Shown here: one piece after another, positions 899 to 43,769 of the stretch
Layout of the letters: each line of letters opens with the position of its first letter
Numbering within the stretch: position 1 is the first letter of the stretch
Origin: Pseudogymnoascus verrucosus
Lineage: Eukaryota
Assembly: GCA_001662655.1 (NCBI GenBank)
Contig: KV460240.1
DNA length: 64,000 nt
Direction: 5' to 3' (one strand)
Program-made: the position numbers and the translations under genes
Notes under the pieces: model-generated
What the model was told of the DNA's origin: nothing
Seen by the model: the letters and a program-made list of their open reading frames with translations, nothing else
Databases searched by the model: none

Positions 899-2198
899 TG
901 CGGTGTTTATGTGGGTGGCAGCCTTGCCGAGGGGATGGAGTTGTTTACAGTGGGAGCGAGGCTGGCAGGCGCGCGCGCGGTGAGGGAGACGCGCTGAGTG
1001 GGGATCCACAGCGGGTAGATCCGCTGGGGAGGGTGTAGCGAGGTCCCTGACGGCGATGATTTATAAATTTAACATTTCGCATTGTGATTTTGGGAGGGCG
1101 AGGAAAGTACTGGCTTCATGGAATTAAAAAGTACTGCTACATCAAATTAATCCATACGTACACTTCCCCAAGACAAAAACGCAATAACCCATCTCCACAA
1201 ACGCGCATGTAACCCTCCATCCTCCATCCTCCAAACTAAGTATAGTCCCACATCCATCCCACCCCTCCTCCTCCCACCTCCCGCGTCAAAAGCCGAAAAA
1301 AGCTTCCCCCATCCCTCCCATCTTCCCACCCAAGCAAACATTCCCGAAGTAAGTAAGCAGCCACCAACCCCCCCCTTCCTGCACTCCCAAACTGCCGTGT
1401 AACCAATCACGCAAAGCACCCGACCACGGAACAACCGATGCACATGTGGGTGGTACATATATTCCCATGCTACCCATGCGGAGCTACTGCGCGGGTCGAT
1501 AGATGGGTGCCGGGGGGAGGGAGGTTGGGTTATCGAACCAAAGATCCCGGGAATAATGTGGTGTTGGATATGGAATTGGGGGGGGGGTTGCGGCTCTGCG
1601 GAGACAGGGAGGGGAGGGTGGGAGTATATGAGGGGGGGATTTGGGGGGGTTTGGGCCTCGGTAGGTGATTCTTTGTTTTATCATTTTATATTTTTAGAAA
1701 AAATTGCGAGATTGGGATTCTTGAATCGGGGATTTTTTTTTGGATTGAGAGTGTTTGAGAATTGTTTCTGAGGGGGAATACGATATATGGTTTGATCATT
1801 CACTTGAGATTTACTGAGAATTTTCCTGAACTGGACGGTGGGAATCCAAGGGAGAAATAGGACTGGATCCAGAGGCTGTAGATCAATACTCACCACGAAG
1901 ATACCCGGATTAACAGCACAGGGGAAATTGAGAAGCAGAGTTGGATGTTAAAATCTCAGGTCCATACTCACTTCATACTCACCACAGCAAGCACATATAC
2001 AGACTCACCTATTTGGGCAAGGGAGATATTCCCAAGCAACATCTCGGTTTTCTCGGAAAGATATCCCAAAGATACCAACCCACCTTCTTGGACAAGGGAG
2101 ACATTAAAAAGAAACCAACTCACCTTGTTGGATCAGAAGGACACTTCAAAGACACCACCTCACAACTCATCCACAACTCACCAACCCCGTCACCAACC

Positions 2199-3923
2199 AT
2201 GGACCTCACTCCCTCCGCCATACCCCTCGCCGTCCACCCAACCGCCGCCTTCACAACTCTCCCCCCTCCCTCTCCACCACCACCAACCACACTCCCCTGG
2301 CCTCTCTGCCCCCTCAACCCCGCCACCCGAATCAACAGCCTCACCCCCGTCCTCAACCCCCACTGGCGCCTCGACCTCTGCAGCTCCCAAGGAACCCAAT
2401 TCCACACCATCCCCCTCACTCTCCCTCTCCCACCACCCCTCTTCATCACCACCACAATCCCACCTTCATCCGCACACCCATCTCTGTCACACCTCCTTGA
2501 TCTCCCTCAAGCATTCAGCCGCCGCGGCAACTCTATCCAGGGACTCGGGATCGCTCAGCATGTTCTCCGTGCCTTGGAGCACTATTCCGCCAAACACCCT
2601 CGGTTTGCAGAGACCTACCGCACCCTTCCCTTCGGCTCCCAAATCGTCATCTCGCGCCTTAACAAAGACGTTAGAAAATGCCACATCACCCTCCTCCGCA
2701 ACACGCAGCTTGAGCACACGCTCCTCAACCCCTCCGCGCTAGCTGCGCTCGCCCCTGAGATCTCCGCCGGGGCCTGGCCAGAGGCGATCGACATCACATC
2801 AATGACTCTCGTGCGTCAGATACACGACAGTGTCTGCGTCGTCGCTCTCCCACATTCCGAGCCGGGGAAGCCGCAGGAACTGGTCATGAAAGCTGTGGCA
2901 GGTGATCCGAAGTACCTCTACCACGAGCTGATCTCACTGCTCCATCTCCCAGCGCATCCCAACATCATCCGCCCGCTATACCTGGCGACGAAGAAATGCG
3001 GGTTTGGCGGCAAGGTGGGTGTGGTGGGGATGCTACTCCCATTCCACCGCGCGGGAAGCCTTCGGGATGTGCTACCCCTTCGTTCTCTAACAGGAACATT
3101 GGCTTGGACTGATCAAATGCGCTGGGCGAAGGGATTAGTCGACGCACTGGTGCATGTTCTGCGCCAGGGAAGTTATTATTCGGACCTGAGGGTTGATAAT
3201 GTGGTGCTTGCCGAGAACGGGGAGGCTGTGCTGGTGGATTTTGAGCAGAGGGGTGTGTGGGCGGGATTTTCAGCGCCAGAGGTCGCGTGTATCGAGAATT
3301 TAGCCATCATTGCGATGAGTGCTCATGGGGAGGTGCCGGAAGTTGTGAGGGCCGAGTATCGTGCGAAGATGGATCGGTTTTTGCCGGGGTGGAGGGACGT
3401 CGGGAGGGGGGCGCATAAGGGGAGGACCGAGGGGTTTGCATTGGGGTGGTTGGCGATGAATGCGGAGGAGAGGGAAGCGGCTATGGTTTATATGCTTGGT
3501 AGAGCACTGTGGTGTATATTTGAGGCAGTGGGAATGCCAGAGCGAGCAGTGTGGAGGCAGGGTGGAGAAGGCGGGGTAGAGTTCCCAGCGTATAGGAGGG
3601 CGGGGCAGAGGGAGAGGGAGTTGATTGATAGGTGTACGAAGGGGAGGGTGGAGGGGAGGAGAGAGCAAGGAGTGGTGAGGATAGGGGGAAGGATTGTGCT
3701 GAAGGATGGAGACGGGACGGAGAGTCCAGAGGTTGTGCAGCGGGCTGCGAAGGAATGGTGGGTTGAGGAGCTGGAGAGGGGAGAAAGGTTCTTGGAGGAG
3801 AGAGAGATACGGAGGGAGGAGAGGAGAGAAAGCGGCGAGGTGGGAGGGTTTTCTGTGTTTGGTGGGAGGCCGAGATTGGAGGAGGTGCTTGATATTTTGG
3901 AGGGTTGGGAGTGTGATGTGTGA
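2199..3923 (+). CDS. Atypical protein kinase-like protein (~574 aa, intronless)
   Basis: Long ORF. Kinase motifs: LVMKA (beta3 Lys), YHEL (alphaC Glu), HPNII, YSDLRVDNVVL (catalytic loop), VDFE (DFG variant), SAPE. First ATG at 2199. Confidence 0.85.
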   Translation: MDLTPSAIPLAVHPTAAFTTLPPPSPPPPTTLPWPLCPLNPATRINSLTPVLNPHWRLDLCSSQGTQFHTIPLTLPLPPPLFITTTIPPSSAHPSLSHLLDLPQAFSRRGNSIQGLGIAQHVLRALEHYSAKHPRFAETYRTLPFGSQIVISRLNKDVRKCHITLLRNTQLEHTLLNPSALAALAPEISAGAWPEAIDITSMTLVRQIHDSVCVVALPHSEPGKPQELVMKAVAGDPKYLYHELISLLHLPAHPNIIRPLYLATKKCGFGGKVGVVGMLLPFHRAGSLRDVLPLRSLTGTLAWTDQMRWAKGLVDALVHVLRQGSYYSDLRVDNVVLAENGEAVLVDFEQRGVWAGFSAPEVACIENLAIIAMSAHGEVPEVVRAEYRAKMDRFLPGWRDVGRGAHKGRTEGFALGWLAMNAEEREAAMVYMLGRALWCIFEAVGMPERAVWRQGGEGGVEFPAYRRAGQRERELIDRCTKGRVEGRREQGVVRIGGRIVLKDGDGTESPEVVQRAAKEWWVEELERGERFLEEREIRREERRESGEVGGFSVFGGRPRLEEVLDILEGWECDV

Positions 3924-4774
3924 AGTTGGCCGATTGGGTACCCGGGTAGGTGTTGGTGATGAACTCCACACCGGTCTGTGGTCCCCGAGATGCCGGGAGG
4001 AAAAAGGACCGGATTATGGTCCATTGGATATCGATTCACACCGGTTGGTGAAGCGGGAAGGAGCGAGTTCGTGAGATATTTTAATTGTGGACTCGAGGGC
4101 GTACTCGTATTGCTGAACACGGGGATTTATTGAATTAACGCGCATGTTTTGAAGCGAGGCTCGTTTCGAGAGTGAAGCTTGGGCTCGTGTGGGCAAATCC
4201 GCAAATCTCGGTGAAGATGGAGAGTTGCAATCGAAGCACTTGTCCCGTGTCCCACGCCCCGGTGAGAATCCTTTCTTCCCAACCCATGGGCGTCTCTTGC
4301 CGGCTCATATACTTGAAGTGACGGTGAGCATGACACATCATACTCTCACCACCCTCGCTCCTTCCTTCTTCGCTGACCGGTCTATAAAGCCGTTGAGTTT
4401 CACACGATCGAAAGCACGTGCCCCTCTCTGCTCTCTGCTCTCCGATCTATTGACGCTCACCGGTGTCCGTCAAGGTGGCATTCCGATTCATCTCCACATC
4501 CATCTCCATCGGTCTAGGCTTGGCCGACGGCGGAAATATCTCCGATCAGTGTCTCCGATTGGGGGAGGTACTCTGGATTAGCCAGCCGGTGAAGGAATCT
4601 GAGTGGAGTCGATGCATGGAGTGAGAGGACCGGTGTGTGCAGTGGGTATTGTCAGTGGCCATTCATCGACTTCAATGCTGTGGTCGTCGGTGTCATGCAT
4701 ATCTAACGCTGCGATGCACCCATGATGCACTAGTTTGTGGTTCCTTTGGATCCTTGGACCCTGAACTATATGAG

Positions 4775-4832
4775 GCTCTCTCTCTCTCCGGTCGAGTTCC
4801 CCAGCTCTCTCTCTCTCCGGTCGAGTTCCCCA
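4775..4832. repeat. Tandem duplication of 29-bp unit GCTCTCTCTCTCTCCGGTCGAGTTCCCCA
   Basis: Two adjacent copies read directly, followed by degenerate CTCCCC/TTCCCC units. Confidence 0.9.
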
Positions 4833-5847
4833 GCTCCCCGTTCCCCGCTCCCCACTTCCCGTTCTGGTCATCCCTGACTCCCGCGCCGGTCCTTCCCTGA
4901 CCCCACTGCGCCTCCACAGTGGTTCCTTCTCCCACCACCATCAGCACCGCCATCACCATCATCACCCACCACCATCCTTCTCATATCATCGAATTGAAAC
5001 ATCGTATATCCATATATCATGACCACCTGTTATGACCATCTATCACTGCCACGTCGCACAGAATCTAGCACTTGCCTTTCGTGACTACAAGTGCGAAAGA
5101 ATTCCTTAATTTCCCTGCCCAGCCTTGTTGGCTGTAGCTGTCACCGTGCAGGGCGTATCTACCCACAGCATATCTATCTACTCAAGATCAGTAGCAAACC
5201 CGTCCATCAAGCATGCGTCGCCGGCTCTCCTCCTCTTTGACCGGCTCCATACAAGGTACTTTCCACTGCACCATGTAGTGTACGTACACACTCGTACCAA
5301 ACATGCAACTACTGACAAAAATATGCAGATACTCACAATACTTCTAATACTTCTAATACTTATTATGCAGCCATCCCGGTTGGGTGTATGTGCGGCTGAA
5401 TCACTTGCACTTCCCATCCCACACCGGTGAGCCAGCCTTGTTGTAACCCTGCAACCGGTGAGAATCAACCACATCAAACTTCCCCATCTACAACCAACAC
5501 AATCCAACTCAAACCTGCACTGCCCAACCCCACGGCATTTGCGGCCAACAATCCACTTTCCTTCTCACCATGTCTTTATATCTCTCTCTCTGAAACACTT
5601 GATTGCTCTGTACTCCACAACCTCGATCACAATCACAATCAACCAACCCATCACCGCCTCCACTTCTATCGCCAGTCACTTTCTATTCCCAGCCTTGCTT
5701 GTCCTTGTTTTGCTTACTATCCCTTCCTTTCCAATTACCCTCTATTCCCCGGATATTGCCTACCCAGGTGCGACGCCACCATCACTGCCCTATCGTCCAG
5801 AGGCCGCGCACTGAGCCACTACAACTTCCTACCTGAACGGAGTACTC

Positions 5848-8840
5848 ATGTCTAGTGTCCCCTCTGGCTTCGTTGCATGGTCCGACGTCTCATCCCGGCA
5901 GCGTACAGAAAGTAAGATGTCACTAGACCGAAACGGCCGTATCCCAATCCCAACTGGAGGTGACGTCTCAGCTAGAATGGTAAGCTACTCGCTATTCACT
6001 CTCTCACCGGCTCGTGATTTGATTCACTCCCTCGGCGATAGAAATATATATCTAAGCCTCTCCTCCCTTCGGTGAACGACATCAACTCACCCAACCTTCC
6101 CATGCTTCTCTATACATCATCACACCAACGACATCACTCTAACTCCATCCAGGCCAACCGCAAGAGAAAACACGACGTCGTCGTCGTCGACCCCTCCAAC
6201 CCCCCCACTTCCAAGCGTCCTAGATCCATCCACCCACAGCACTTCAACCTCGCCAGTCTCCCCACAGACGAGCGAGTTCGCCAAGCAGCTACCCTACTAC
6301 GCATGCCCGTGACCCGCCTGCGGTCAGTCATCTCCGACCTCGAGGAGGAAGAGCCTGAGCAGGAGCCCGAGCAGTTTGTGCCGTACTATGACTGGCCGCT
6401 TTCTCATCAACCCTCCAGAATGAAACGCGGAATGGGCCGGGGGAGGAGCACCCCGAAGCCTCGGTCAACTGGCTCGGTGGGCGAGAAAGCTGTGGGTGGG
6501 GAGGTGAACAATTACACGGGAGGACAAGGAGAGAAGACGGTGTCACAATGGAATGGGCAAATGGATGGCTCGTCGGAGTTTTCGGAACCTGCAAGCCAAG
6601 GCGGGAGAGATAGTACGTTTTGTTTCCCGAAGGAGGTTTTGGTGGAGTTTTTCTCAAATTGGTGCTCTGTGGACGACGAACCTTCACGGGGCAATGGATA
6701 CGGTAAGTTGATTGGCGAGACTGGGAGAGGTTAGCTGATGGTGGTTTACAGAAAATCAATCGATGCTACCACCTGCTTCGGCTTCCGCACCACAGTTTGT
6801 GGGATCTCAGTTTATGGACACCTATCCTGAGAACTATGGAACCTCGATGGCTGGCCTCCCCTATGCCTATGACAGCAGTGGAGGCCATAATAGCTTTGCT
6901 ATGGTATTTATTCCCAATGTTTCTCCTGTAGCTTAACTAACATTGCCAGGAAACGTCCTTTAGCTGTGATACCCCTGAATTCAGTGGTCCATGGATGCAG
7001 CCCCTCCAACAATACCAAGTGCAGACCCAACCCCATAAGCAAGAGATGACATATCTCCAGCCTCCTAGCTATATGGAATCCAACCTATCCTTTGCGAATA
7101 ACAATGGATATCTCGAAGCACCACCCCCAGACTCTGGCTTTGTCTCCGATGCCAGCCTTCCGCAGCAGAAGTCAGAGACTAGACAAGGCTCAGACAGCGG
7201 TCGCAGTGTAGAAGACACAGAGTCCTCACTGGCTGGTGCACCAACGCGCCGAGGGCCATTCAAGAGCCAGTTTGACCGAGTTCAGACCGCGCAGACTCGG
7301 AAAGATGGGTGTTGCCTCCGCTGTCGACACCAAAAAATACGTGTATGTGTCTCCCTTTGCAATTCCAGATCCCTGGTGTTACATATCGCTAATGAGACCA
7401 GTGCATCCCGGACCCTGAAGACCCGAAAGGCGTCTGCCTCACCTGCAAGAATGTGAAGGCGGCCAACATGAAGGTGCAGAAGCCGACGTGCATCCGCCAC
7501 AGGATCACAGATGTTCGCCTCTACAAGATGGGGCAGGTCCCTGGGCTCGAGTGGAGCCAGCGGTGGTCGAATCGGACGCTGAAGGAAATGGGTACGTGGG
7601 CGAGCGGAGAGACGATAACTATCCAGGTTAGCGAGGGGTATACGTCCACGCCACTGAAACTGGTGGTTTCCGAGTTTAGGCCTGTGAAGGGAGATGTGCT
7701 AGAACGCAGTTGGGTGAGCAGTGCGGGCGTGAAGAAGAAGGTTGCGATCCCTTCGTATGCTATCAAGGACCTGGCGGCGGCACGAGACGCTTATAAGAAC
7801 TACATAAATCAAGGTGGACCAGAGTTCTTCCAAGGGGCTCTAGACCCTAAGGACAGGTTCCTTTGGATGACCTATAATATGGCCATTACTACCTCTAACG
7901 ATCCGGATATTGTAAGTTGCTTTTCTTCTCCTCCCTAAACCGCGTCCACACTAACCTTCCGTAGCCAACGGTCCAACGCAAACTCCTCAGGATGGTTCTC
8001 CAACTCTGGGTTGCCATCCGCCTGAATACAAAGTCGACCAACATAGTCGGTCCCGAGACTCTCGGCATGGCCCCAGACATTTTCGATGCCACGCACCCGA
8101 CGCCGGGCCGCATCCCCATTCCGCCCGTGATGGGTAACCAGATCGAGCTGATCCTATCCCGGGACATCCAAGACCCGCTACGGAACGACATTCTCGATGC
8201 GCTGCAAAGGCTGATATATTCCAACAAACCTGGGTGCTGGTTCACAATCTACTTGTGCACCTTCATATTGCTGCATAACTGCTCTATGATCACCAAGCAT
8301 GACTCGGCATACGCTAGGAAGCATGGGTTACAGGTACGTCAACCCCTCTTTTCCCTTCACCTGGGAATTGATCGACCAACCAAACCGTCCCAAACCAAAA
8401 AACCAACAAACGCATATACCCCGCTAACCCGATTCCCACAGGCCCGATTTGCGCGACCGGCAATGGTGGCAGAATACCACGCCGGCGCCATGGCGCTACT
8501 TGCACATTTCCACCTTTGTAATAAGGGCTCGTACCCGTTCAGCGCGGCTGCGGGCGAGAGGGTAGATATTCTGACTAACGCGGGGTTAACGGAGAAACAG
8601 AGCAAGTTTATTGAATCGACAAGGAAATTTGTTAATGGTAATGGTGAGTAAATGCATTTTCTCTCCTTACCCACCCCGTCCCTAGGCTCCTTCCCCGCGG
8701 AGATGTGAGAATGCAGTCTTGGCTAACAGGGGCTAGCGGTCCGTTTTGAGGAGTTCCGTTGGGCAGAAGCATTCGATAATGACTACTACTTCATATCCCA
8801 GCTGTACGAGCAGGACTGGAAACCTCGTATCAAGATCTGA
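5848..8840 (+). CDS. Variant Zn(II)2Cys6 transcription factor, 8 exons
   Basis: Exons 5848-5979, 6042-6702, 6752-6903, 6950-7342, 7402-7911, 7965-8333, 8442-8643 and 8737-8840 splice in frame. Cluster CLRCRHQKIR|CIPDPEDPKGVCLTC-x13-C. C-terminus YYFISQLYEQDWKP. Exon 1 is the least certain. Confidence 0.85.
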
Positions 8841-10186
8841 GTTTCTGCGGCTGAGGCGGCTGAGGAGGCTCAACTACAGCACACCACACACTTTTTATAA
8901 GAGTCATGGGGTCTGACATGCAGTCACTGATGAAATATGAAATACCCGGAATGCTATACATTGCAGTGCATTTGCATTGCATGATATCCACATGCAGTTC
9001 GCCGAGCTGGGACGAGCAAACAAATACGTTTTTCTACTTCATTTACTGTTTTTGTGCTTTAAAAACATGTATAATAGGCAAACAAACCCAATCAGCAGGG
9101 TTCTGGGAAAATACAATACCCAGGGGACGGACGGAGGAAGGGGCGATCATGCGCCATGGAGAAATGGAGTCCGGAGGAATCTGTATGTCTAGCCTATCAG
9201 TAATGAAATGCGTTGCGTTTGCCTAGCATCTACATAATCTCACTCGCTCCCGCTCCTCACTCGCTCCTTCCCCAAGAACCTCGATAGTAAAATATAGGCA
9301 ACCAGCCCCCGTCAGCGTAGCTTACCCCATACCCAATATCAGATAATGAAACACAATAAAACCCCACTTATCCGTATCCGAATCCCAACTTGTCCCAAAA
9401 CCGAATCCCACAACAACCCCAGCTGAACCAATCCCACCGCACTCCCACCCCTCTCCCGGCATGCTAACTTATAGTTCCAACACACACCCCCGAACGCCTA
9501 TTGGTGGGCGCCATATAGGCACCCACACCTGGATATATTCACCCACACCTCCATGAACTTTGAGGCTCTAGTGTTGGGATGGTGATTGGGAGACCGAGAG
9601 GGGGAGTCATGCGCTTGAGTTGGCGTGATGACGATTCGCAAGTGGGAGGGGGGGATTGAGGCTCTGTGTGGCAGGGCTGAAGTGGGTCGGGGGGGGGAAT
9701 GGGTGACAGCCGGGGGGGGGGCGCGGTTGTTCGTTTCGTTTCGGGTTTATTTTATGATTTGGGAATGGGGACGAAGGGAAGAGGGAGGGGGGGGGGCGGG
9801 GGGGGTGATAAGATTTCCCGGGTGTATGGAGGAATGGCGTCTGTTGTTATTTATGCCTTGATTTGGACATCCAGCATCTGGAGATTGTGTTTGCGGCCCG
9901 GCGCGGGTGAGTAAGAGGCGTGAATAAAGTTTACGTAGGTTTGGAGGCGGGTGAGTGAGGTGAGTCTGAGTCTGAGTCTGACATGTGCATGATATGATAG
10001 TGGTGATGGCGTGTGTATGGACTGGTAAATGTTTTTGGGAAGGAGGGGTGCAGCACGCATGGGAAGCTAGGATATTTGGAATCTGCAGTTAATCTGCAGG
10101 GAAAGCTGAGTGCGGGTAGCTGATATCTGGGGGAGCTAGGAGCCGGGAGCTGATAGATGAGAGGAACTATAGGCGGCAGCTGTAGA

Positions 10187-10415
10187 CAAACGGAATATAA
10201 ATATTTGACTTTGCTCCGCTTCAATATTCTTTTTTCATTCTTCTTTACTTATCACAGACTACAAACGGATATATATATCTGACTTTACTCAGTCTTCAAC
10301 CTTCCTTCTTCTCTATCCATCACCAATATTCTCCGGACATTCAACCTTCTTTCTTCTCTATCCATCACCAATATCCTCCAGCCCTTCAACCTCCATCCTT
10401 CTTCTCTATTCATCA
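10187..10415. repeat. Imperfect direct repeats upstream of the dioxygenase gene
   Basis: CAAACGGA(A)TAT..AT.TGACTTT.CTC..CTTCAA occurs twice (~10187, ~10262). TTCAACCT..(C)TTCTTCTCTAT(C)CATCA occurs three times (~10295, ~10340, ~10385). Confidence 0.8.
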
Positions 10416-10520
10416 TCCTCGACGTCCTCGATATTTAACATCACTCCTACCTTACCAACACACAAACATCCACTACAACCTCACAAATCTCACAATCACA
10501 ACCCCCAAACAAACAAAACA

Positions 10521-12097
10521 ATGGCTCTCGTCCACCCAACCCACCCCCTCACCACAACCTCATCCCCAGACCCCTACGCCCTCCCCCCCTCTTTCCCCTC
10601 CTCCATCTCCTCACCCCTAGCCTGGACCGGCGCAGACCTCGCAGACGAGAGTTACATCTACCACCTCACCCCCTCCGACCTCTCCGAGATCAAAGATGCA
10701 TTAGCAGTATTCAAATGTACGTCTCCCCATTTCCCCCTCCCCCTTTCGTCCCTCTTTCGTCCAATAGCCGCCACGGCCCGTCCCGCCTTCCCGCCTTCCC
10801 GCGGCGTAGCCGCAACTTAAAGATGGTTACACAGGGCTATACACAGACAGGCAGACATACAGGCAGGCAGTTGAACAAAGACTAACCTCTTCTCTTCTAG
10901 CACACAATCTCAACGGCGACCTCGCCACCCCCACGACCTTCCCCCTCCCTACCCTCGGCCCAAAACTCCGCCTACTCTCACACGAACTATACAATGGGAG
11001 GGGGGTTTGCTTGATCCGCGGGCTGACGCCGGAGATGTATGAGCCGGAGGAGGGGATGGTGGTGTTTATGGGGGTGCAGAGTTATATGGCGGGGGGGAAG
11101 GGGAGGCAGGATGGGAGGGGGAATATGATTGGTGAGTTTGGTTGTTTGGTCTTTGGGTGATGGGCGGAGTGACTGACTGGGGATAGTTCATATTACCCCG
11201 TCGGAATATGATGCGAAGCATTCGAGGCATTCGATGGATAGTTTGGTATGTCCCCCTTCCCCCTTTCCCTTTCCCTTTCACCTACCCACTTTCCCCTACC
11301 CTGCCCCCTTTTCGCAACACCCACCAACTCACCTTCTTTTCCCCACAACCACTAAACCTCCAACTCCACAAAATCTAACAACCTTACAGCCCTTCCACAC
11401 CGAAGCCACTGGCGACATCCTAGCCTGGCAAACCCGCGCCGCCGCCGCCGAGGGCGGGAAGTGTATCGTCTCCTCCGCATACACAGCGTACAACCTCCTC
11501 GCCGCCACCTGTCCCGAGGTTATCCACACCTTAGCAAAGCCAGATTGGCCGTTTGCATAGTAAGTCTCCCTTTCCCCTCCCCCTCCTCCAAACCAAAGAA
11601 CCAGCAAGCTAACCCGCCCCAGCCCAACCCTCCACTACCGCCCCATCCTCTACCACACCTCCCCCAACCTCCTCATCAACTTCTCCCCCTCCGCCCTCCT
11701 CTCCACCCCCTCGCACCCCCGCCCCTCCCACCTCCCTTCCCTCACCCCCTCCCAACTCTCCGCCCTCTCCGCTCTTCAAGCCGTCGCCCGTGCTACCGAA
11801 TTACACATCACCACCAAGGCAGGGGACTTGCATTTCGTGAATAACCTCGCGATTATGCATCGGCGATCTGCGTTCTCTGCTCCTAACACCAAGGGAGTGG
11901 GTAAAGTGGATGGGGAGATGGAGGAGCCAAAACGTCATCTGGTGCGCATGCGTCTTCGTTGCCCGGAACGGGGGTGGAAGATACCAAGAGAGTTGGCGCC
12001 GGCGTGGGAGGAGGCGTTTGGGGAGGAGGGGGAGAGGGAGTGGCATCTTTTTCCGATGCCGGAGGGGTATTTTCCGTTGAGGAAGTATCCTGAGTAA
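10521..12097 (+). CDS. TauD/TfdA family (clavaminate synthase-like) Fe(II)/2-oxoglutarate dioxygenase, 5 exons
   Basis: Exons 10521-10716, 10901-11131, 11187-11245, 11390-11559, 11623-12097. Motifs SPLAWTG, FPLPTLG, ELYNGRG..IRGL, PFHTE, NNLAIMHRRSAF, RHLVRMRLR. Confidence 0.9.
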
Positions 12098-13250
12098 GGT
12101 GCGGCGCTCCTTGCTCTCTCACCGGGGTCCTGTGGACTGTGAGTGGGATGGGGGATTGGATATGAGTTTCCGAGTTTCGATTCTTAGGTGGATGGGGTGG
12201 TGTCGTTTGAGGCTGGACACGGTACCTCACGGCTCTGACCCCCTTTTTTTAATCTTCTCGGTAGCCCTGGAGGCAGGGTGTTCTTGGGGTTTTCTTCATT
12301 TTTTGCGAGGATTTTTGATACCAATCCCGGCGTGGATACTCCCTTTATTTTCTACCTTTTCTTTCCTGGCTAGGTTCGGTTCGCATCTCGGGATAACGGG
12401 GGGGGGGAGACAGTGGTTGTACGATGAACGAGGCAGCGCCTCGGAAAACGCCTTGCGATGACTTTCTTGATTTTTTTTTTGCCCCGAGGGGCGGAGCGAA
12501 AAGGGGCGAGAATGTCTGAAGTACAAGGCTTTCGGGTGGCGAATATGGATCGGTTGCCTTGGGATCAGTGTGCGCGGCGATGGATTTTACATAGCATGGA
12601 TTTTCTTAATGATAATTGAATTTCACAGACGAGGTTATTCACTAGCATCTTTGTGAGTGATGAAAAATGGTAAAAGCATATTGATATAACCACCTTCAAT
12701 AATACAAAAACGCCCCCCCTTGAAGATTTCTAAGTCTAGGTATCTATCTATCCAAAAAATGCAAATCCAAACAAATGCTTTCCTCGCTCCATATGTATTT
12801 CCTGTAAATGACGACCTTCTATAAATAATTGATATCCCAACCCCCCCCCCAGCTCCCCGTCTCCCTTTTTTCCCCCGCTAATATATGCATTCCCAAACTC
12901 CTGTCTGATTTTGCGAAATCGGTTTCGTGTCTTGCGTAGACAAAAAGAAAATATTGGTATATCCAAGTTGGTAGTTTAAAATAGAAAAAGCTGTATGTGT
13001 TGTATGTTTGTCGTGTGCTGTGCGCCGATAATGATTGGTGTTCTTGCATGCGTGCCCTCTTGTAATCCTCCTCTTCTGAACACGCATACCCTCTATCGTA
13101 TGCGTGTAGTCTTTCAAAGCAAACATTCCCCGTCCCATATATAACCCTCAACACCTAGTCGTCTCCCTTTTCTTATATCCAAGACTCAAGCCAGTCAGAT
13201 GAACCAGACCTGTCGTGACTGGCACCCACGTGCCCAACACACAGTCCCCC

Positions 13251-14188
13251 TCATGGACAAAACATACACTTACACCTCTTCAACCCACCCCCCACCATCA
13301 CTACATGCTTCTCAACCGCAACCGTCAACTTCGGCGCCTCCAAGCTCTTCTGCCTGAAGCAATCTCGCTCCCACTTCTCCGGCGGCTGGAGATTGCGAAA
13401 TTGGTCCGGCACTGCGGTTACAGAGACGTGGTGGTCGGTCGTTTCCTGTCGATTCTTGACCGTCTTCCGCGACAGCTTCTCCGAGATGGCGAGGTACACG
13501 AATTGGAGGTGGATGGGGCGGAGGGCAAGGGTGGTGTTGTCCAGGGTGCTGGGTGCCGTGGTGTGGTAGGCGAAACCGTCGTTGGTGATGGTGTGGGGGT
13601 AGGGGTCCTGGGACCCTTGGAGGTAGGGGCCCTGATTGTCGACGGCGTGGAAGTCCCCATGGTGGTTCGGAAGGGCGAAATCCTCGAAGCTCAAGGAGTA
13701 TGATGGCTGAAATCCGTGGGTGGTGATAGGGGATCTGTTGGCGCCCGCGGCAGCGTTGCGCCAGGTGTTGCGGTCGGCGACGCGGAGGGCTGAGCAAGCG
13801 ACGACGACGTCTGCGGTGCCGTGGCGTGCTTGCCTTATGGCTTCGTGGATGATTGCGACGAGGATTTCGGCATGGCGATTATCGTCGACGACGCCGCTGT
13901 TTGCCTTTTCCTCTTCGGTGAGGAACTGTGGAGGTTAGCTTGCTGTTGGGAGAGAGGGAAGGGACACAGATGGGGATGGGGACTCACGTCGTCGCCTTCG
14001 ATGAAGATGAAACCTAGTTTGGCGCATAGGTATTTCCCAACTCTAGACTTGCCGGCTCCCGAAGGCCCCGTTATGACCCAGATGTTGGGGGTGGCCGACA
14101 GGGCGGTCTGGGGTTGATCCCACGACGGCGGGGGCATCTCGGCCGCGCGATAATGTTTCGTTCTTCGGTTTGGTCGTCGAGACTCCAT
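13251..14188 (-). CDS. Gluconokinase/shikimate-kinase-like P-loop kinase with internal insertion
   Basis: VITGPSGAGKS, FIEGDD|F (intron 13987-13926), VVACSALR, FVYL, QFRNLQPP; all GntK-type motifs. Confidence 0.8.
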
Positions 14189-32296: not shown

Positions 32297-33859
32297 TTAA
32301 TATCCTCGGATCAATTTCCTCGTGGTCCCCACGTCATGTATATCTTCTTCATCGGTATCCCCATGATACTCATTAAGATCATCGCTGCCAGGCTTATCCT
32401 CGCTCTCATCGCTCTTATAATTCTCATCATCATCCTCATCATTCTCAAAAGCGCTGGTTTTTTTGCTCCTGTCACCATACTTTTGATATCCCTCGTCGCC
32501 ATCGCTATCTTCATGATCCTCATAGTCGCTGTGGGGTCCGCGAAAGTCGTCTTCCAGGTCGAAATCGTCCACTTTTCTCTCATAATCTTCACCATCATCC
32601 CCATCGTCCTCACTAACGCTGATCTTCTTGTTTCTTCGATACATCTTGTAGCCATCGCCATCGTCAGAAGCATTATCGTCGCTGTCGCCAAAGGTAAAGT
32701 CGCTATGCACACTGCGATCGCCCTCAGTGAACTCAGAATCTTCATCATTACTCCCATCATTCTCATCATCCTTGGTATCGCTCATTGTTTCGCTCTTGTC
32801 ACCATCTTCGTCCTCACTTTTATCATCCTCGGCGATTGATGTTTTGTCGACTTCTCCGTTATCCTTATCACTCATACTAACGGAGGCTCCGTCACTTTCC
32901 CGGTCATTCCTCTCCACAGGTTTCATCTCACTTTCCCCATCAGGAACTTTCGTCCGTCTTTGAAGCTACCTAGACTGTCAGTAAGCCCCAGCACCAACTC
33001 ATCAAAGGACACCATCCACCACGTACCTTCTTATCAATTGACCCCTTAATCTCCCTCTTCTCCAACGGCTCAAACAACTCCGCCATGCTCGTCTTCAGCT
33101 CCACAATCGGGTCATTGAGCCTCTCCAGTACCTCCTGCAAGACCTCATCCGACTCCATCTTCAAATCCACCAGCTCCCCTTTGAGCGCGTCTTGGAGGTC
33201 TTTGATATCAGACATTTTGGTGGCAAACACAGCAGCCCTTTCCCGCACTCTGCGGTTTTTTGCATAGGTTTGTTCGAGTGAGGCGACTTTGGCCTTGGCG
33301 GAGAGGATCATACGCTCTTCTTCAGCTTCGGAGTCGATATCCGGCTCCTCGGCTGCTGTCTTGATTTGAGAGGTCATTGGGGAAGTGCCGGAGGGTGAGG
33401 CTGGCTCGATTGGTGGCGCTGTATCGGAGGGTGTGGGCGGTTCAATGGTGACATTTCCGTCGGTTTGAGATACCGGCAAGGGACCGACGTCGGGTGAAGC
33501 TGTGCCTGAGGTTATGGTGGGCTGATTGATGGTATTTTGATTGGGTTGAGTGGTCGTCAATGGGACGTCTTCGGACGAGTTGGAGTATAAGTCTATGCTG
33601 ATGTATTAGTATTTATCTTGGTTCAGAAGGGAGGCGGGAAGTCACCGTCTTCCTCTGGGTCTGGCGCGATGTAGCTGGGCCGAGTAAGTCGGGGTCGAAG
33701 GTTTCGACGAGGACGGTCTGTCTCTGGTGAGGGGGAGCGTCTGCGTCGAGTAGAGCGGGTTATGGTAACATCTTCGTCCTGATAGATTTCCTGATAGATT
33801 TCTCGCAGGATCTCACATTCGGCATCTGTGAGAGGAGTTGCAGGGTCGATTGAATCCAT
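32297..33859 (-). CDS. Orphan protein with coiled coil and very acidic (D/E) C-terminus, 3 exons
   Basis: Three ORFs join in frame via introns 33645-33593 and 33026-32966, both with branch points. Confidence 0.7.
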
Positions 33860-39397: not shown

Positions 39398-42336
39398 TCA
39401 CCAATCGAGCTCGAGCTTCGGCATGGAAGCGGCAACTGCGTGCCGACTTCCACGCCGACGAGCCTCGAAGGTGACCCCACCTATCGTCACCGTCTCGACC
39501 TCGAGGTGAATGACAACTGGCTGTTGGCGGCAACCAGTTGCTTCGTGGCCCTCGAGGCCGGACCGTGACAAGGATGTCAGGGCCGAGGGTGGTACGCCGG
39601 CTCCCGTGAGCTCGGCGACCAAGTGAGAGTGGGCCGTGGAGGGAGCAGCCATGGTCAGTATGCCTCGTGCATACTCACCTCCACGATCCTGCTGGAGAGC
39701 AGGATCCTCCACAATTGATGTCAACTCCAGCTCGCGCTGGAGTGACGCGCGGGAGGTGACAGATGGTGGGGGCTTGGTATTGCCATGTCCCGCCGACTCA
39801 TCTTCACGACTTGGAGCTGGGCCAGTTCCAGGCTCCAAGTCCTCCGCGATTGACGTCGCGACGCCAGTTTCCGTCTGTGTTCCAATGGAACACGATATGA
39901 ACCCAGTGTCAGTCTGGGTCCCAACTGACACGCGAGACTCGACACTGGGTTTAACGGGCTTTGCGTCGCGACGGCTCTTCTTCTTCGAAGCCGCCGCTGA
40001 TGGCTCCGATGGCCGAGATACAGGGACCCACTCCTGTTGCTCAGGAAGAGGCGCGACCCATTTGCCGCGCCTCGGCTTGACATTCTCCTGAGCAACAGGA
40101 GACGAAAGTTGCGCCAAATGAGAAGGGCCGGCAGAGATCGGGTTTGCATTGTTCAAAGAAGGCTCCACCGAGCGAGGTAAGTTCGGAGACGCGTCGGCGA
40201 GGGGTGTGGCTTCATCATCCTCGTTGGAAGCAGGTCCGGAAGTCTGGCCTGTCGGGTGGTGTAGTTTCAGATGAACGCCAGCAACATTCCCGTCATTGGT
40301 CGCACTATCCGATGTAGTCTCTGAGACTTTCTCCAATGCTCGAGGTGGATTCAAAGACAGGTTGGTAGTCTCTGGAAGTGGTCCAGAGTCTGATGGGTTG
40401 GCCGAAGTCATTGAGATTCCAAGTGCTGATGCGCGGGATAAGGTTCGCATCCGAATAAAGTCAATGCTCTGACGCCTCTCCTCACGCCTCTCCTCCTTTA
40501 TGCTGGCTCGACGGGCTCTCACTTCTTCAAGGCTCGGTTGTGGTGGTTGCGCTCTCAACTCTTCAATAACCCGAGCTCTATCCTCGTTGGTGGACTGGGA
40601 CCCATGGGTTGATGCAATATGAGCTCCAGTGTGATTTGGACTGGAACTGGCGGCAGCAACGACCTGAGGAATTACTTGGACCTCCACTGGAGCGGCAGCT
40701 TGAAGGGTCACTGCATCTTTGACTGGGGCTTGGGAAGATGCTGTGCCTCCAGTTGGGGCATCAGTTTGAGAAGATGCTGTATGTCTAGCTGGGGCAACAG
40801 CTTGAGATTCTGATTTCTTGGCGATGCTTGTGCCTGTTGTAACAATAGTCGTCGATGAAATTGCTTCATTTCTGACAAGGGCTGAGACTGAATCTGAGAC
40901 TTCTGGGATTGTTTGGCCCTGAGTCAGCTGTCCAGCTTGGTCCTCGGATTGGGCAGTGGATTGAGAAGATTCCTGGCCATGGCTTGACGTGGATACACGA
41001 AGGTTTGTCTGGCGTTGGTTTGCAATAATACCTTTTCCGTCCTTGATCGGTTCAGGGGTTCTGGCTTCAGTTTTGTTTGTAGGTGCCTCTTCCAGAAGAT
41101 GAGTGACGTCGGGAGTCTCATCTATGGTAGGCTCGAGGTCATTGTCTTCAGTAAATGCCTCCAAAGTTTCCTCGACCTTTGTGGTCTCAACTGCTATCCA
41201 TTTAGTTAGAGCTACCCTCTATATCGATAGTTTTGGGATATTGGACTCACAATTAATCTCCGTAATCTCAGCTTGAATGGTGGCAGCACTGCTGGCTTCA
41301 CCGGCCTGTTCCACTCCACCAATCTTGCGCTTCGTCCTACGGCGCTTATTCTTGCCTGTTTTCCCTTTTGGTCGCTTTTGGATGGCCATGACTGGTTCAA
41401 GCCTTGAAAAGCCCCGACTCGACATCGGAATGACCTCCAAACCATAATATAGTTTCGAAATGTTGTTGAAATTCGGAAAGCCTGGATTTGTTCCTTCCAT
41501 GTTCACAATACAGTCCTGGGTATCATTGTTCAGACATGTCTGGATCAAGAATCGACGGTTGTCTTTCATAAACTGATGGAGGTCATCGTGAGTTGGAGAG
41601 ATGATTGGTGCCTCGTCATCAGTATTGGTCTTGCAGCAAAGTGTGTCGATTGAGTCATGCTCGATCTGAAGCGGCTCTGGGTCTTTAGTGGAGATTCCGG
41701 TAATGGTCTCGTTATGGGCCTTCATTCTATTGTAAAGAAAGTCCGTGCTCCATACAGTTTGGCCAAATGTAGTGCCAATGTAGATATAGGGAATGGTGGA
41801 GTTTGAAGACAGGAGGCGGTGGCTTGCAGAAAGACTTGAATTCTCATAACCCTATGATTATTAGTGAATAGGTTTCGTGTCTTCGGACAGCTATAACCTA
41901 CCTCAACCCAAATCCTGAGATCGATAAATCCCTCTGGCTCCCCCAACTTTTTCTCCAGTCTGATAGCTTGGTAGCCAGTTTGCTGCCAGAAAACTTCTGG
42001 TATGATGCAAGTAGTAAAGTTGTGGCCAATGTTGGCATCATACACTGTGTTTGCGTAGGAAGTCATAGTATCTACTGTGACTGGTGATACTGGTGCGATT
42101 CCTACAACGTGATTCCAAAGGAATGCCAAGAAGTTATTGTCAAGGTTCCCGGCAGCTGTTTTGTTTCTGTTGACAATCTGTTGTGAGAGGGCAATCCAGG
42201 CCCTGTTCAGGACACTGGCAGGTATGGCAAAGCCACTCGTATTAGTGATGTTCACAAAGGCTGGGATGTTCAGCTTTTCCTCTTCTGGTGCCTTGCCACC
42301 ACCTCCTTTGCTGCTAATAGTTGACATTGTTAGCAT
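39398..42336 (-). CDS. Orphan protein (~940 aa): globular-looking N-terminus, basic NLS-like patch, long S/T/P-rich tail
   Basis: Exons 42336-41902, 41851-41251 and 41193-39398 splice in frame via canonical introns (GTAGGT..CTAAT..TAG; GTGAGT..CTAAC..TAG). Start codon uncertain. Confidence 0.7.
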
Positions 42337-43769
42337 AATTGTAGAACAAGGTTGAGAAATAACTGTGAAGCAATTTGACAGAAATAAAGTCAAGAAAGCA
42401 GTGGAGTGGTATGTTGTTGGTGATGTTTGGGGCGTGGTGCCACCGAGGGATGATCTGGTCAAAAATGGCGATAGTGCAGTAGTGAGGTCAATCTGATTGA
42501 TAGATGTTCGGGATATCCATGTGCCAGTAAAGGTTGTATGAGGAAGTGTGGAAGGTGTAGGGGCAATCGGTAGATCGTAGGTCAGACGAGGCACTCTGCT
42601 CGAGTTTCCGGTGAAGGTGTAGGGGCAGTTCGCTTGGGTCACACGTCCAACTGTAGAAGCAACCGAAAGATTGCAGGTGAGAAGGACTGTCTGCTCTGGT
42701 TGCTAGGGAAGCTATTGCTCTTCTGGCGAATGAGAACGGGGGTGACCCCGGTCAAGACTCCCGCCAAACTGGCGGAGGCCACCGAGCCAGCGGGGATAGT
42801 GCTTTTAAATCGAATAGAGAACAAAATAAAACTATGAACTTACTTCTTTGCTTTCAAGTTCGAAGATAGGAAACGTTAGGAAACGTTGGCGTAGAAACGG
42901 TGCCGTTAGAAATTTTGGAAAAGGGTGAAGTTATACAAATCGAAGTAAACTTAACTATTATATCAGGGGCAATGTGCGGCATGAATACGCGAAACTATTA
43001 GCGTATCCTACACTACGTACGGTAAATATGATACTCCGATGCCGAGTTTATATTGTTTCCCTTAAAGCGGCCCATGACAAAGCGAGGTTTGGTTTGGCTC
43101 ATTAGTGAAATCCATGACAAGGCTTCTCGGCCTCGCTGGTATAAACCTGGCATCACATCTTGAACATTAGAAGGAAGTAAATAAATATATGCTTCCTCTT
43201 CCCTCGACTTTTATATCAAAGCCAGCCTTATGGTGTTACGGCCAGATAATGTGTAATGAAGAAAGGTATGGAGCATCCCTACCAGATGGGCTCGTTTGGG
43301 TATCAAATATGACAAAAGTGAATAGGAAATTACTGTACATTTAGCATATATAACTTAACTGTAATACATATTAACTGAAATTATGGCATCAAAAACATTA
43401 CAGGTGCAGTTGGTGAAGTGCCTCGATTGCATGGTGATAATATGTCGTTGGAGGTTGTTGGGATGCTTTGACGCGCGCTTCAACTACAAGCGCGCTTGTT
43501 GCTTTGGGTTAGCGCGGTTTGACATAGTTTATCGCAAAACCTCTCTTGAACAGTTTGACGATCTTCAACACCCTCTTTTGCCCAAGATACAAATTTAGCC
43601 GTCGCAAGCGCATATTTGAGCCAGGCCGCTATAGTGTTGATCTCATCTGTAGCTGGGGGGGGTTTTCTAGCAGTGTCTCTGTTGCGACGCTTTCATACCC
43701 AAAGCGAAAACCACACGAAGCAACAGTCTTGATCTACACCACAGCCTCACAAAGATCTATATTGCACTC

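Follow-up and report, generated by a model that had tools for sequence, protein, structure and literature searches.

A 64,000-nt stretch of contig KV460240.1 (assembly GCA_001662655.1) of Pseudogymnoascus verrucosus, referred to here as the window, carries three co-oriented genes for a protein kinase, a Zn2Cys6 transcription factor (TF) and an Fe(II)/2-oxoglutarate (2OG) dioxygenase. Our results indicate that these genes form a conserved unit, almost certainly under selection of some kind, and that the trio probably tunes the development of spores and fruiting bodies. The fuller reading, that they constitute a three-gene developmental regulatory module of filamentous ascomycetes, is one to which we give even weight for and against. 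The genes are the following.

2199-3923, plus strand: kinase; single exon, 574 aa; intronless protein kinase of tyrosine kinase (TK)/tyrosine kinase-like (TKL) fold, probable orthologue of FfkF (AN4196/NCU03250) by position
5917-8840, plus strand: TF; KpeA-family Zn2Cys6 transcription factor, 780 aa, 8 exons (5917-5979, 6153-6702, 6752-6903, 6950-7342, 7402-7911, 7965-8333, 8442-8643, 8737-8840)
10521-12097, plus strand: dioxygenase; clavaminate-synthase-type Fe(II)/2OG enzyme of the TauD family, 376 aa, 5 exons (10521-10716, 10901-11131, 11187-11245, 11390-11559, 11623-12097)

Gene order and co-divergence

Linkage was followed on metagenome contigs scanned with an alignment of 30 kinase sequences, which gave 55 loci falling into 42 clusters at 90% nucleotide identity. 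Within 10 kb of the kinase, the TF is present in 13 of the 42 clusters, the dioxygenase in 11, either of them in 17 and all three genes in seven. The gluconokinase-like gene that follows the trio in the window, together with three other window neighbours, is present in one cluster only (L004, the closest relative), and the neighbouring aspartate aminotransferase gene in none. The module genes were found in five arrangements: kinase, TF and dioxygenase in tandem (window, L004, L045); TF and kinase divergent (L018, L022, L023, L028); TF, dioxygenase and kinase in tandem (L049, L053); a TF diverging from a tandem dioxygenase and kinase (L050, L054); and a TF converging on a dioxygenase that diverges from the kinase (L056). 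The Sordariomycete loci have the TF 5.7-7.6 kb upstream of the kinase and facing away from it, with no dioxygenase between the two in Sordariales. At L007:5839-10365 the dioxygenase directly follows the kinase, and no TF lies between them or within 5.8 kb upstream.

Accession adjacency extends the linkage to database genomes. The kinase, TF and dioxygenase are KAK0746282/284/286 in Schizothecium and g7145/7146/7148 in Stylonectria; the TF and dioxygenase accessions are consecutive in Diplogelasinospora and Hypoxylon, those of kinase and TF are two apart in Apodospora, and several Pseudogymnoascus pairs are adjacent too. By this measure the trio is found in Sordariales and Hypocreales, and the TF-dioxygenase pair in Xylariales. 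Since NCU03248/NCU03250 and AN4196/AN4197 lie close in locus number, the linkage probably reaches Eurotiomycetes as well. The preliminary description of this DNA had proposed a unit of these genes, and their orthologues are indeed linked in other genera; it had also counted in the gluconokinase-like gene, which, being kept at one locus of 42 that also keeps other window neighbours, is a neighbour outside the conserved module.

The kinase tree (48 rows, of which 27 are from the 55 loci, 20 are database proteins and one is the window) contains a Sordariomycete clade with support 100/100 and a separate clade of seven rows with support 100/99, and the dioxygenase tree (FastTree) nests the same seven rows in the same way. 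The TFs of L050 and L054 cluster with the Hyaloscypha paralogue P0312; that of L041 is of the orthologous type, nearest to the main Hymenoscyphus and Hyaloscypha proteins. A second, divergent version of the whole trio therefore exists, most simply explained by duplication or transfer of all three genes together. The TF branches of L049 and L056 are long and not settled in their placement, and because of this and of the midpoint rooting of the trees the order of these events is not fixed. The idea that the seven rows represent a third fungal class was given up in view of the TF tree. The flanks of the divergent trio at L039:5317-6858, L049:17704-19182 and L050:9445-11362 hold a HET-domain gene, another kinase and a cyclic-nucleotide phosphodiesterase, none of which recurs.

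Distances correlate between module genes (Mantel r 0.84 and 0.71), and in Sordariomycetes the trio follows the species tree. Such correlations are also expected from shared ancestry alone, and partners were not seen in 25 of the 42 clusters, mostly short contigs, so that inherited microsynteny without function has to be considered. We regard it as highly improbable: outside the closest relative the flanking genes are gone, whereas the trio is still found, in five different orders and orientations and also as a divergent second version. A Pfam-less gene, convergent and downstream of the kinase at L034:7886-9700, has matching open reading frames (ORFs) in L010, L017, L018, L023, L024, L026 and L051; in these eight Sordariomycete loci it reflects either lineage-level synteny or a fourth member there.

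Promoter elements

Two short motifs mark the promoters of the trio, and a third is probably of a more general kind.

3924-5916: TF upstream region, with seven ACCGGT palindromes at 3970, 4040, 4376, 4459, 4629, 5423 and 5454
9367-9372, 9807-9812, 10248-10253: GATAAG upstream of the dioxygenase, the proximal one matching other loci in position and orientation
1403-1409, plus strand: CCAATCA upstream of the kinase

Seven of the ten ACCGGT sites of the window fall in the 1,993-nt TF upstream region, against a background in the same genome of 10 in 142 kb and at most two in any 2 kb. The cluster was found in the window first and was then tested on 11 other loci with TF-upstream DNA. There ACCGGT ranks first among 2,080 hexamers when regions are drawn by hand (41 occurrences against 19, with a Markov expectation of 8.4 and a maximum of 17), and under a fixed rule it occurs 41 times in 44.6 kb of TF-upstream DNA versus 21 times in 144.7 kb, in all 11 loci; formal P values for these counts overstate independence, because the loci are related. 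The longest exact word common to the TF promoters of the window and L004, which are otherwise unalignable, is a 13-mer containing ACCGGT. This clustering upstream of the TF is a new observation. A CCGG core suits a Zn2Cys6 protein, which makes autoregulation by the TF a first guess, and the cluster is best treated as a set of candidate autoregulatory or upstream-regulator sites. A Grainyhead/CP2 site, which we take to be AACCGGTT, was considered and rejected: it needs A and T flanks, and after orientation the flanks of ACCGGT are mostly C or G (54 of 65 at position -1 and 46 of 65 at position +6).

Upstream of the kinase in L009, L010, L017 and L034 stand three to six ACCGGT sites, the TF not being on the fetched DNA; this predicts a TF further upstream. 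Elsewhere in the own genome, five ACCGGT sites fall within 3 kb at G000:C24:115667-118695 (L085).

Dioxygenase promoters differ in composition. Those not shared with the TF hold no ACCGGT in any of eight loci, nor in the window. The chain from kinase to TF to dioxygenase suggested in the preliminary description stays hypothetical, and the best candidate TF site is missing from the promoter at its end. They hold GATAAG instead, with 17 copies in 10.6 kb and in 9 of 11 loci (window included), versus 0.28-0.31 per kb in kinase and TF promoters; the copies lie mostly 180-430 nt upstream of the dioxygenase and on the antisense strand. The SreA-type site ATCWGATAA was rejected, being present in one of the 11 dioxygenase promoters (the window). 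CCAATCA is found in 23 of 33 kinase promoters and is common in other promoters too, so it is probably a generic CCAAT element.

These regions could themselves be what is selected. The long enhancer-like region of the TF alone would then be under selection, with kinase and dioxygenase as bystanders of no common pathway, held in place because breaks would hurt shared cis-elements. The Sordariomycete kinase, facing away from the TF across the 5.7-7.6 kb with its ACCGGT sites, the dioxygenase that shares the TF promoter in L050 and L054, and the loss of the kinase at some loci all fit this idea. We nevertheless consider it quite unlikely: in the window and in L004 the sites follow the kinase and the dioxygenase follows the TF, which leaves the TF promoter unshared, and still both partners are retained; the side on which a partner lies changes from one lineage to another; and kinase and dioxygenase stay together in L007 with no TF between them.

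No paper on the linkage or on the ACCGGT element was found in open full text, a search that leaves most subscription journals, the original KpeA paper and supplements uncovered, so that a remark on synteny or a binding motif may have been missed. The preliminary description knew of no account of such a unit; this holds for the linkage in the literature searched and fails for its parts, which are partly known (the KpeA family and probably FfkF).

The three proteins

The kinase carries K231, E243, YxD329LR331xxN334, D347FE and P360E, with a segment of 15 residues from DFE to PE (a very short activation segment), behind a conserved N-terminal region of about 190 aa. The residues of an active kinase are present: K231, E243, D329, N334 and D347 are invariant in 30 of 30 homologues, and the catalytic-loop motif and the DFE...PE motif were each found in 118 of 120. 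The GxGxxG Gly-rich loop is missing, with Q(L/I)HDS(V/I) in its place in 98 of 120 homologues, and Arg stands two residues past the catalytic Asp, where Ser/Thr kinases usually have Lys. A predicted model (pLDDT 83.5) matched tyrosine kinases in every Foldseek row shown. In a wide structure search Src was the top match (Z 21.3, rmsd 2.7, 233 aligned), then FES, EGFR and JAK, with the TKL kinases RIPK and IRAK4 at most two Z units behind; the first 176 residues were barely covered by the fold search. The family has this Arg in common with TK and TKL kinases and differs from them in its large C-lobe insertions and in lacking the Gly-rich loop. The diagnostic motifs of tyrosine kinases are DL(R/A)A(A/R)N in subdomain VI and xP(I/V)(K/R)W(T/M)APE in subdomain VIII (PMC3937382), in place of which the present family has DLR(L/V)(D/E)N and GVWxxFxxPE; another kinase group, FslK, is reported absent from ascomycetes (PMC3937382).

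By gene position the kinase is probably FfkF. NCU03250 is an unclassified kinase and the orthologue of the A. nidulans FfkF AN4196 (PMC3591445), and its locus number is two away from that of the TF orthologue NCU03248, as in other Sordariales; AN4196 likewise neighbours AN4197. FfkF resembles our kinase as a fungus-specific unclassified kinase, the match between the two being positional, and neither AN4196 nor NCU03250 is among the best 120 of 283 kinase matches. A. oryzae is reported to be without FfkF, and the accessible description of FfkF gives no gene context (PMC3591445). A complex prediction of the kinase with the C-terminal part of the TF (P0121 residues 352-771), made with no alignments, scored 0.00 and is evidence neither way. 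L058:6439-8040 is a kinase pseudogene interrupted by many stops and frameshifts, and no partner is visible there.

The six Cys residues of the TF (377/380/387/398/401/416, spaced x2-x6-x10-x2-x14) lie in the middle of the protein. The Cys pattern was matched at all in 108 of 126 homologues, 93 of which have the x10 and x11-16 spacers. A mid-protein six-Cys Zn cluster with a long last loop is what we take to define the KpeA family. The family PF27566 (KpeA) is precomputed on 50 of 50 TF-search matches, near-identical Pseudogymnoascus proteins included; a local Pfam scan of the TF protein P0121 assigned no family. We place the TF in this family. It shares PF27566, the mid-protein cluster and the long last loop with KpeA of A. 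oryzae (AO090003001186), which differs in being described, in the accessible sources, as a lone regulator without linked kinase, dioxygenase or binding site; the family holds several paralogous clades, and the likeness is at family level. Deletion of kpeA raises kojic acid six-fold and lowers brlA, abaA and wetA, KpeA being a controller of conidiation genes (PMC11121810, PMC8303533, PMC9969635, PMC10890517). CRG1 is a Zn2Cys6 repressor of conidiation whose orthologue is given as AN4197 (PMC12232718), the next number after FfkF AN4196. The supplements, as far as accessible, hold no confirmation of CRG1/AN4197 as a KpeA-type module gene, and AN4195 is labelled acetamidase there.

The dioxygenase matches PF02668 with 84 bits against a cut-off of 27. 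Its Fe triad H165-x-E167...H298 and the 2OG-binding R327 are intact; H165 and E167 are found in 21 of 23 homologues (two gaps), H298 and R327 in 23 of 23, and an invariant H-x-R-H motif precedes the triad. A predicted model reached moderate quality only (pLDDT 63). The nearest solved relatives are TtnM (7N7V, E 8e-24) and FrbJ (5EQN, E 4e-11), with OrfP, VioC, AsnO and clavaminate synthase among later structural matches; the enzyme shares the fold and the H-x-E...H triad with TtnM, FrbJ, OrfP, VioC and AsnO, and differs from them in its own H-x-R-H motif and in an identity of at most about 23% in the structural matches. The earlier claim that every gene of the unit departs from its family norm is right only in part, given that the TF has the Cys spacing usual in its own family and the dioxygenase motifs are canonical for the clavaminate-synthase type.

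A TauD hydroxylase and a Cys6 factor, the same two protein types, also occur as SAT17 and SAT20 in the small backbone-less cluster SC3 of Stachybotrys (PMC4117958, PMC9027890), and database homologues of our dioxygenase and TF are auto-named after them. SC3 differs in having no kinase, in its extra methyltransferase, acetyltransferase and MFS transporter, and in being strain-specific, and the best published homologues of SAT17 and SAT20 are only 39% and 30% identical (PMC4117958). The SC3 pair looks paralogous to the module genes, from which it is set apart here by published descriptions.

Published phenotypes at the corresponding positions

The TF orthologue in Neurospora is NCU03248. NCU03247 adjoins it on the far side, with CDC14 next (PMC8875772), and because Sordariales loci have no dioxygenase between TF and kinase, gene order makes NCU03247 the likely dioxygenase. 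In the NCU03247 knockout, protoperithecia appear at least 48 h early; the Fusarium orthologue is FGSG_00531 (PMC5509106), next to which FGSG_00532 is, by a slight preference and again from gene order, the TF. Expression of FGSG_00531 rises from 17 to 847 fragments per kilobase per million (FPKM) at 72 h, after that of FGSG_00532 has peaked at 48 h; both genes are down in mating-type (MAT) deletions, and the FGSG_00532 knockout makes more perithecia and fewer asci (PMC4559316). Taken together, these reports suggest that the genes assigned by position have mating-type-dependent expression at the fruiting stage and a braking role. Translated quantitative PCR primers for FGSG_00532 gave no significant match among 459 proteins, none of which is a named F. 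graminearum protein, and the accessible parts of the PMC4511438 supplements and of the Fusarium kinome paper held nothing on the identity of FGSG_00531/00532 or NCU03247. The candidate Fg11812 was rejected, as it is Kin4.

The same genes could instead constitute a metabolic cluster without a backbone gene. The TF would be a pathway-specific activator of the dioxygenase, which would hydroxylate a primary or foreign compound in catabolism, detoxification or tailoring; the kinase would adjust TF or enzyme, and the developmental effects would be secondary. GATAAG would suit nitrogen control. The nearest solved relatives of the enzyme are natural-product hydroxylases (TtnM, FrbJ), a TauD hydroxylase and a Cys6 factor also occur together in SC3 (PMC4117958), and the FGSG_00532 peak precedes that of FGSG_00531 (PMC4559316). 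We still find this explanation unlikely, if the least so of those set beside the developmental one. No transporter or further enzyme recurs across loci, and ACCGGT, the element linked to the TF, is absent from unshared dioxygenase promoters. A multi-site promoter of 2-7 kb would better suit a developmental regulator. In this genome the trio has one copy at orthologue level, and in Sordariomycetes it tracks the species tree, whereas most secondary-metabolite clusters are patchy.

Gene models and surroundings

All four genes of the preliminary description are real and intact, with GT..AG introns and one terminal stop each. The fourth is the neighbour already mentioned.

14188-13251, minus strand: gluconokinase-like gene; divergent GntK/IdnK-like P-loop kinase, 291 aa, exons 14188-13988 and 13925-13251

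TIGR01313 is the best family for both of its exons (26.5 and 32.9 bits against a cut-off of 113.75, the exons being scanned separately). Relative to a typical GntK length, its protein has an insertion of about 75 aa between the two matched stretches.

The dioxygenase model is identical to the P. verrucosus database protein P0318, and the closest kinase matches, among those listed, are Pseudogymnoascus proteins with 76-90% identity. An alternative in-frame ATG at 5848 would add 23 aa to the TF. No run recorded as RNA contains the window. Four runs were used as contigs, which cannot rank genes by expression: TF introns 2, 5 and 7 are skipped in contigs of three presumed-RNA runs from relatives, pieces of one run also break at introns 3, 4 and 6, and the kinase, dioxygenase and gluconokinase-like gene are represented only by short pieces in one run. 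TF intron 6 (8334-8441) is 108 nt long and open in frame, so that its retention would add 36 aa, and one relative's contig starts inside it; for CRG1, an in-frame retained intron that is regulated by light is on record. Each module gene is single-copy at orthologue level in its own genome. Distant paralogues lie on other contigs (dioxygenase C45, TF C46, kinase C19) and are unlinked within the 20 kb fetched round each.

The intergenic regions had been called long and repeat-containing. The two spacers measure 1,993 and 1,680 nt, merely a modest excess over the 666-1,494 nt of five other nearby spacers. The repeats exist (29 nt twice at 4775-4832, 45 nt two to three times at 10295-10415, 49 nt twice at 1992-2115); they are short tandem copies that look like ordinary slippage duplications. 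Just 5' of the kinase, degenerate repeats with a period of about 75 nt (1992-2130) lie inside an open frame that runs 89 codons ahead of the conserved Met, into which some database models extend the N-terminus. As had been stated, the long ORFs of the window, some of which were scanned against Pfam, include no recognised polyketide synthase (PKS), non-ribosomal peptide synthetase (NRPS) or terpene synthase, and no such backbone gene recurs in related loci either. In the middle of the window, where GC content is lower, two long ORFs (41219-42702 and 32297-33605) are unrecognised; 41725-42702, the sole part scanned, has no Pfam match.

Discussion

The linkage, the co-divergence, the catalytic motifs and the two promoter motifs are observed; the mechanism built on them here is proposed. 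A developmental module could work as follows. The KpeA-type TF would be the core, switched on at the transition to fruiting or sporulation downstream of the mating-type locus, and would bind the CCGG-core palindromes upstream of its own gene, which would make it a feedback switch. The kinase would act on the TF after translation, as an optional input. The dioxygenase would come on later, through a GATA factor, and might hydroxylate a small acidic or amino-acid-like metabolite and thereby make or remove a signal, perhaps one sensed by the conserved 400-aa C-terminal domain of the TF. The net output would be to restrain or time the commitment to spores and fruiting bodies.

Several observations weigh against a developmental module of three genes. 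Neither partner is seen in five clusters that extend more than 5 kb to both sides of the kinase (L009, L010/24, L017, L034, L057/58); some may be too short, because the Sordariomycete TF sits 5.7-7.6 kb off, but at L017, which has 10 kb to either side, the absence is real within that range. L043:4248-5962 and L045:2268-3953 are kinase pseudogenes, broken by many stops and frameshifts, beside intact-looking partners, the stops of whose TF and dioxygenase genes are confined to apparent introns. Three of the 11 TF promoters hold a single ACCGGT only. Close ACCGGT pairs are rare genome-wide (seven), so that no wider regulon is seen, and the six other places with paired sites share no common theme; a control with a reversed pattern gave 33 pairs, a figure that is not comparable as that pattern lacks CpG. 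The developmental side depends on gene identities taken from gene order and not confirmed by sequence: the papers label NCU03247/FGSG_00531 and FGSG_00532 'hypothetical' and 'COPII vesicle coat' (COPII being FGSG_00532 in PMC4559316), and no Neurospora dioxygenase is among the 42 dioxygenase-search matches. The sign of the effect is mixed, since deletion of kpeA lowers brlA, abaA and wetA and deletion of crg1 raises conidiation, and the Neurospora orthologue of CRG1/AN4197 is given as NCU07745 and not NCU03248 (PMC12232718). Finally, FfkF deletion is without phenotype (PMC3591445), and five aspergilli lack FfkF (PMC5307856).

Conserved fungal clusters are usually metabolic; a protein kinase, a TF and a single enzyme kept as a cluster across classes is an unusual combination. 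At its most ambitious, the developmental module would be an ancient, self-contained, operon-like signalling circuit, in which a fungus-specific kinase of TK-like fold, possibly specific for Tyr or of dual specificity, and a hydroxylase forming or destroying a small-molecule developmental signal both act on a ligand-sensing, ACCGGT-autoregulated KpeA factor that times fruiting bodies and spores downstream of the mating-type locus; we regard this version as rather unlikely. The trio joins three orphan lines of work, as it offers a partner for FfkF, a kinase without a deletion phenotype, a candidate binding site for the KpeA family, which controls conidiation and the yield of kojic acid, and a candidate enzyme for a signal that would act in development after mating-type control. 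Each module gene is open to testing in Neurospora.

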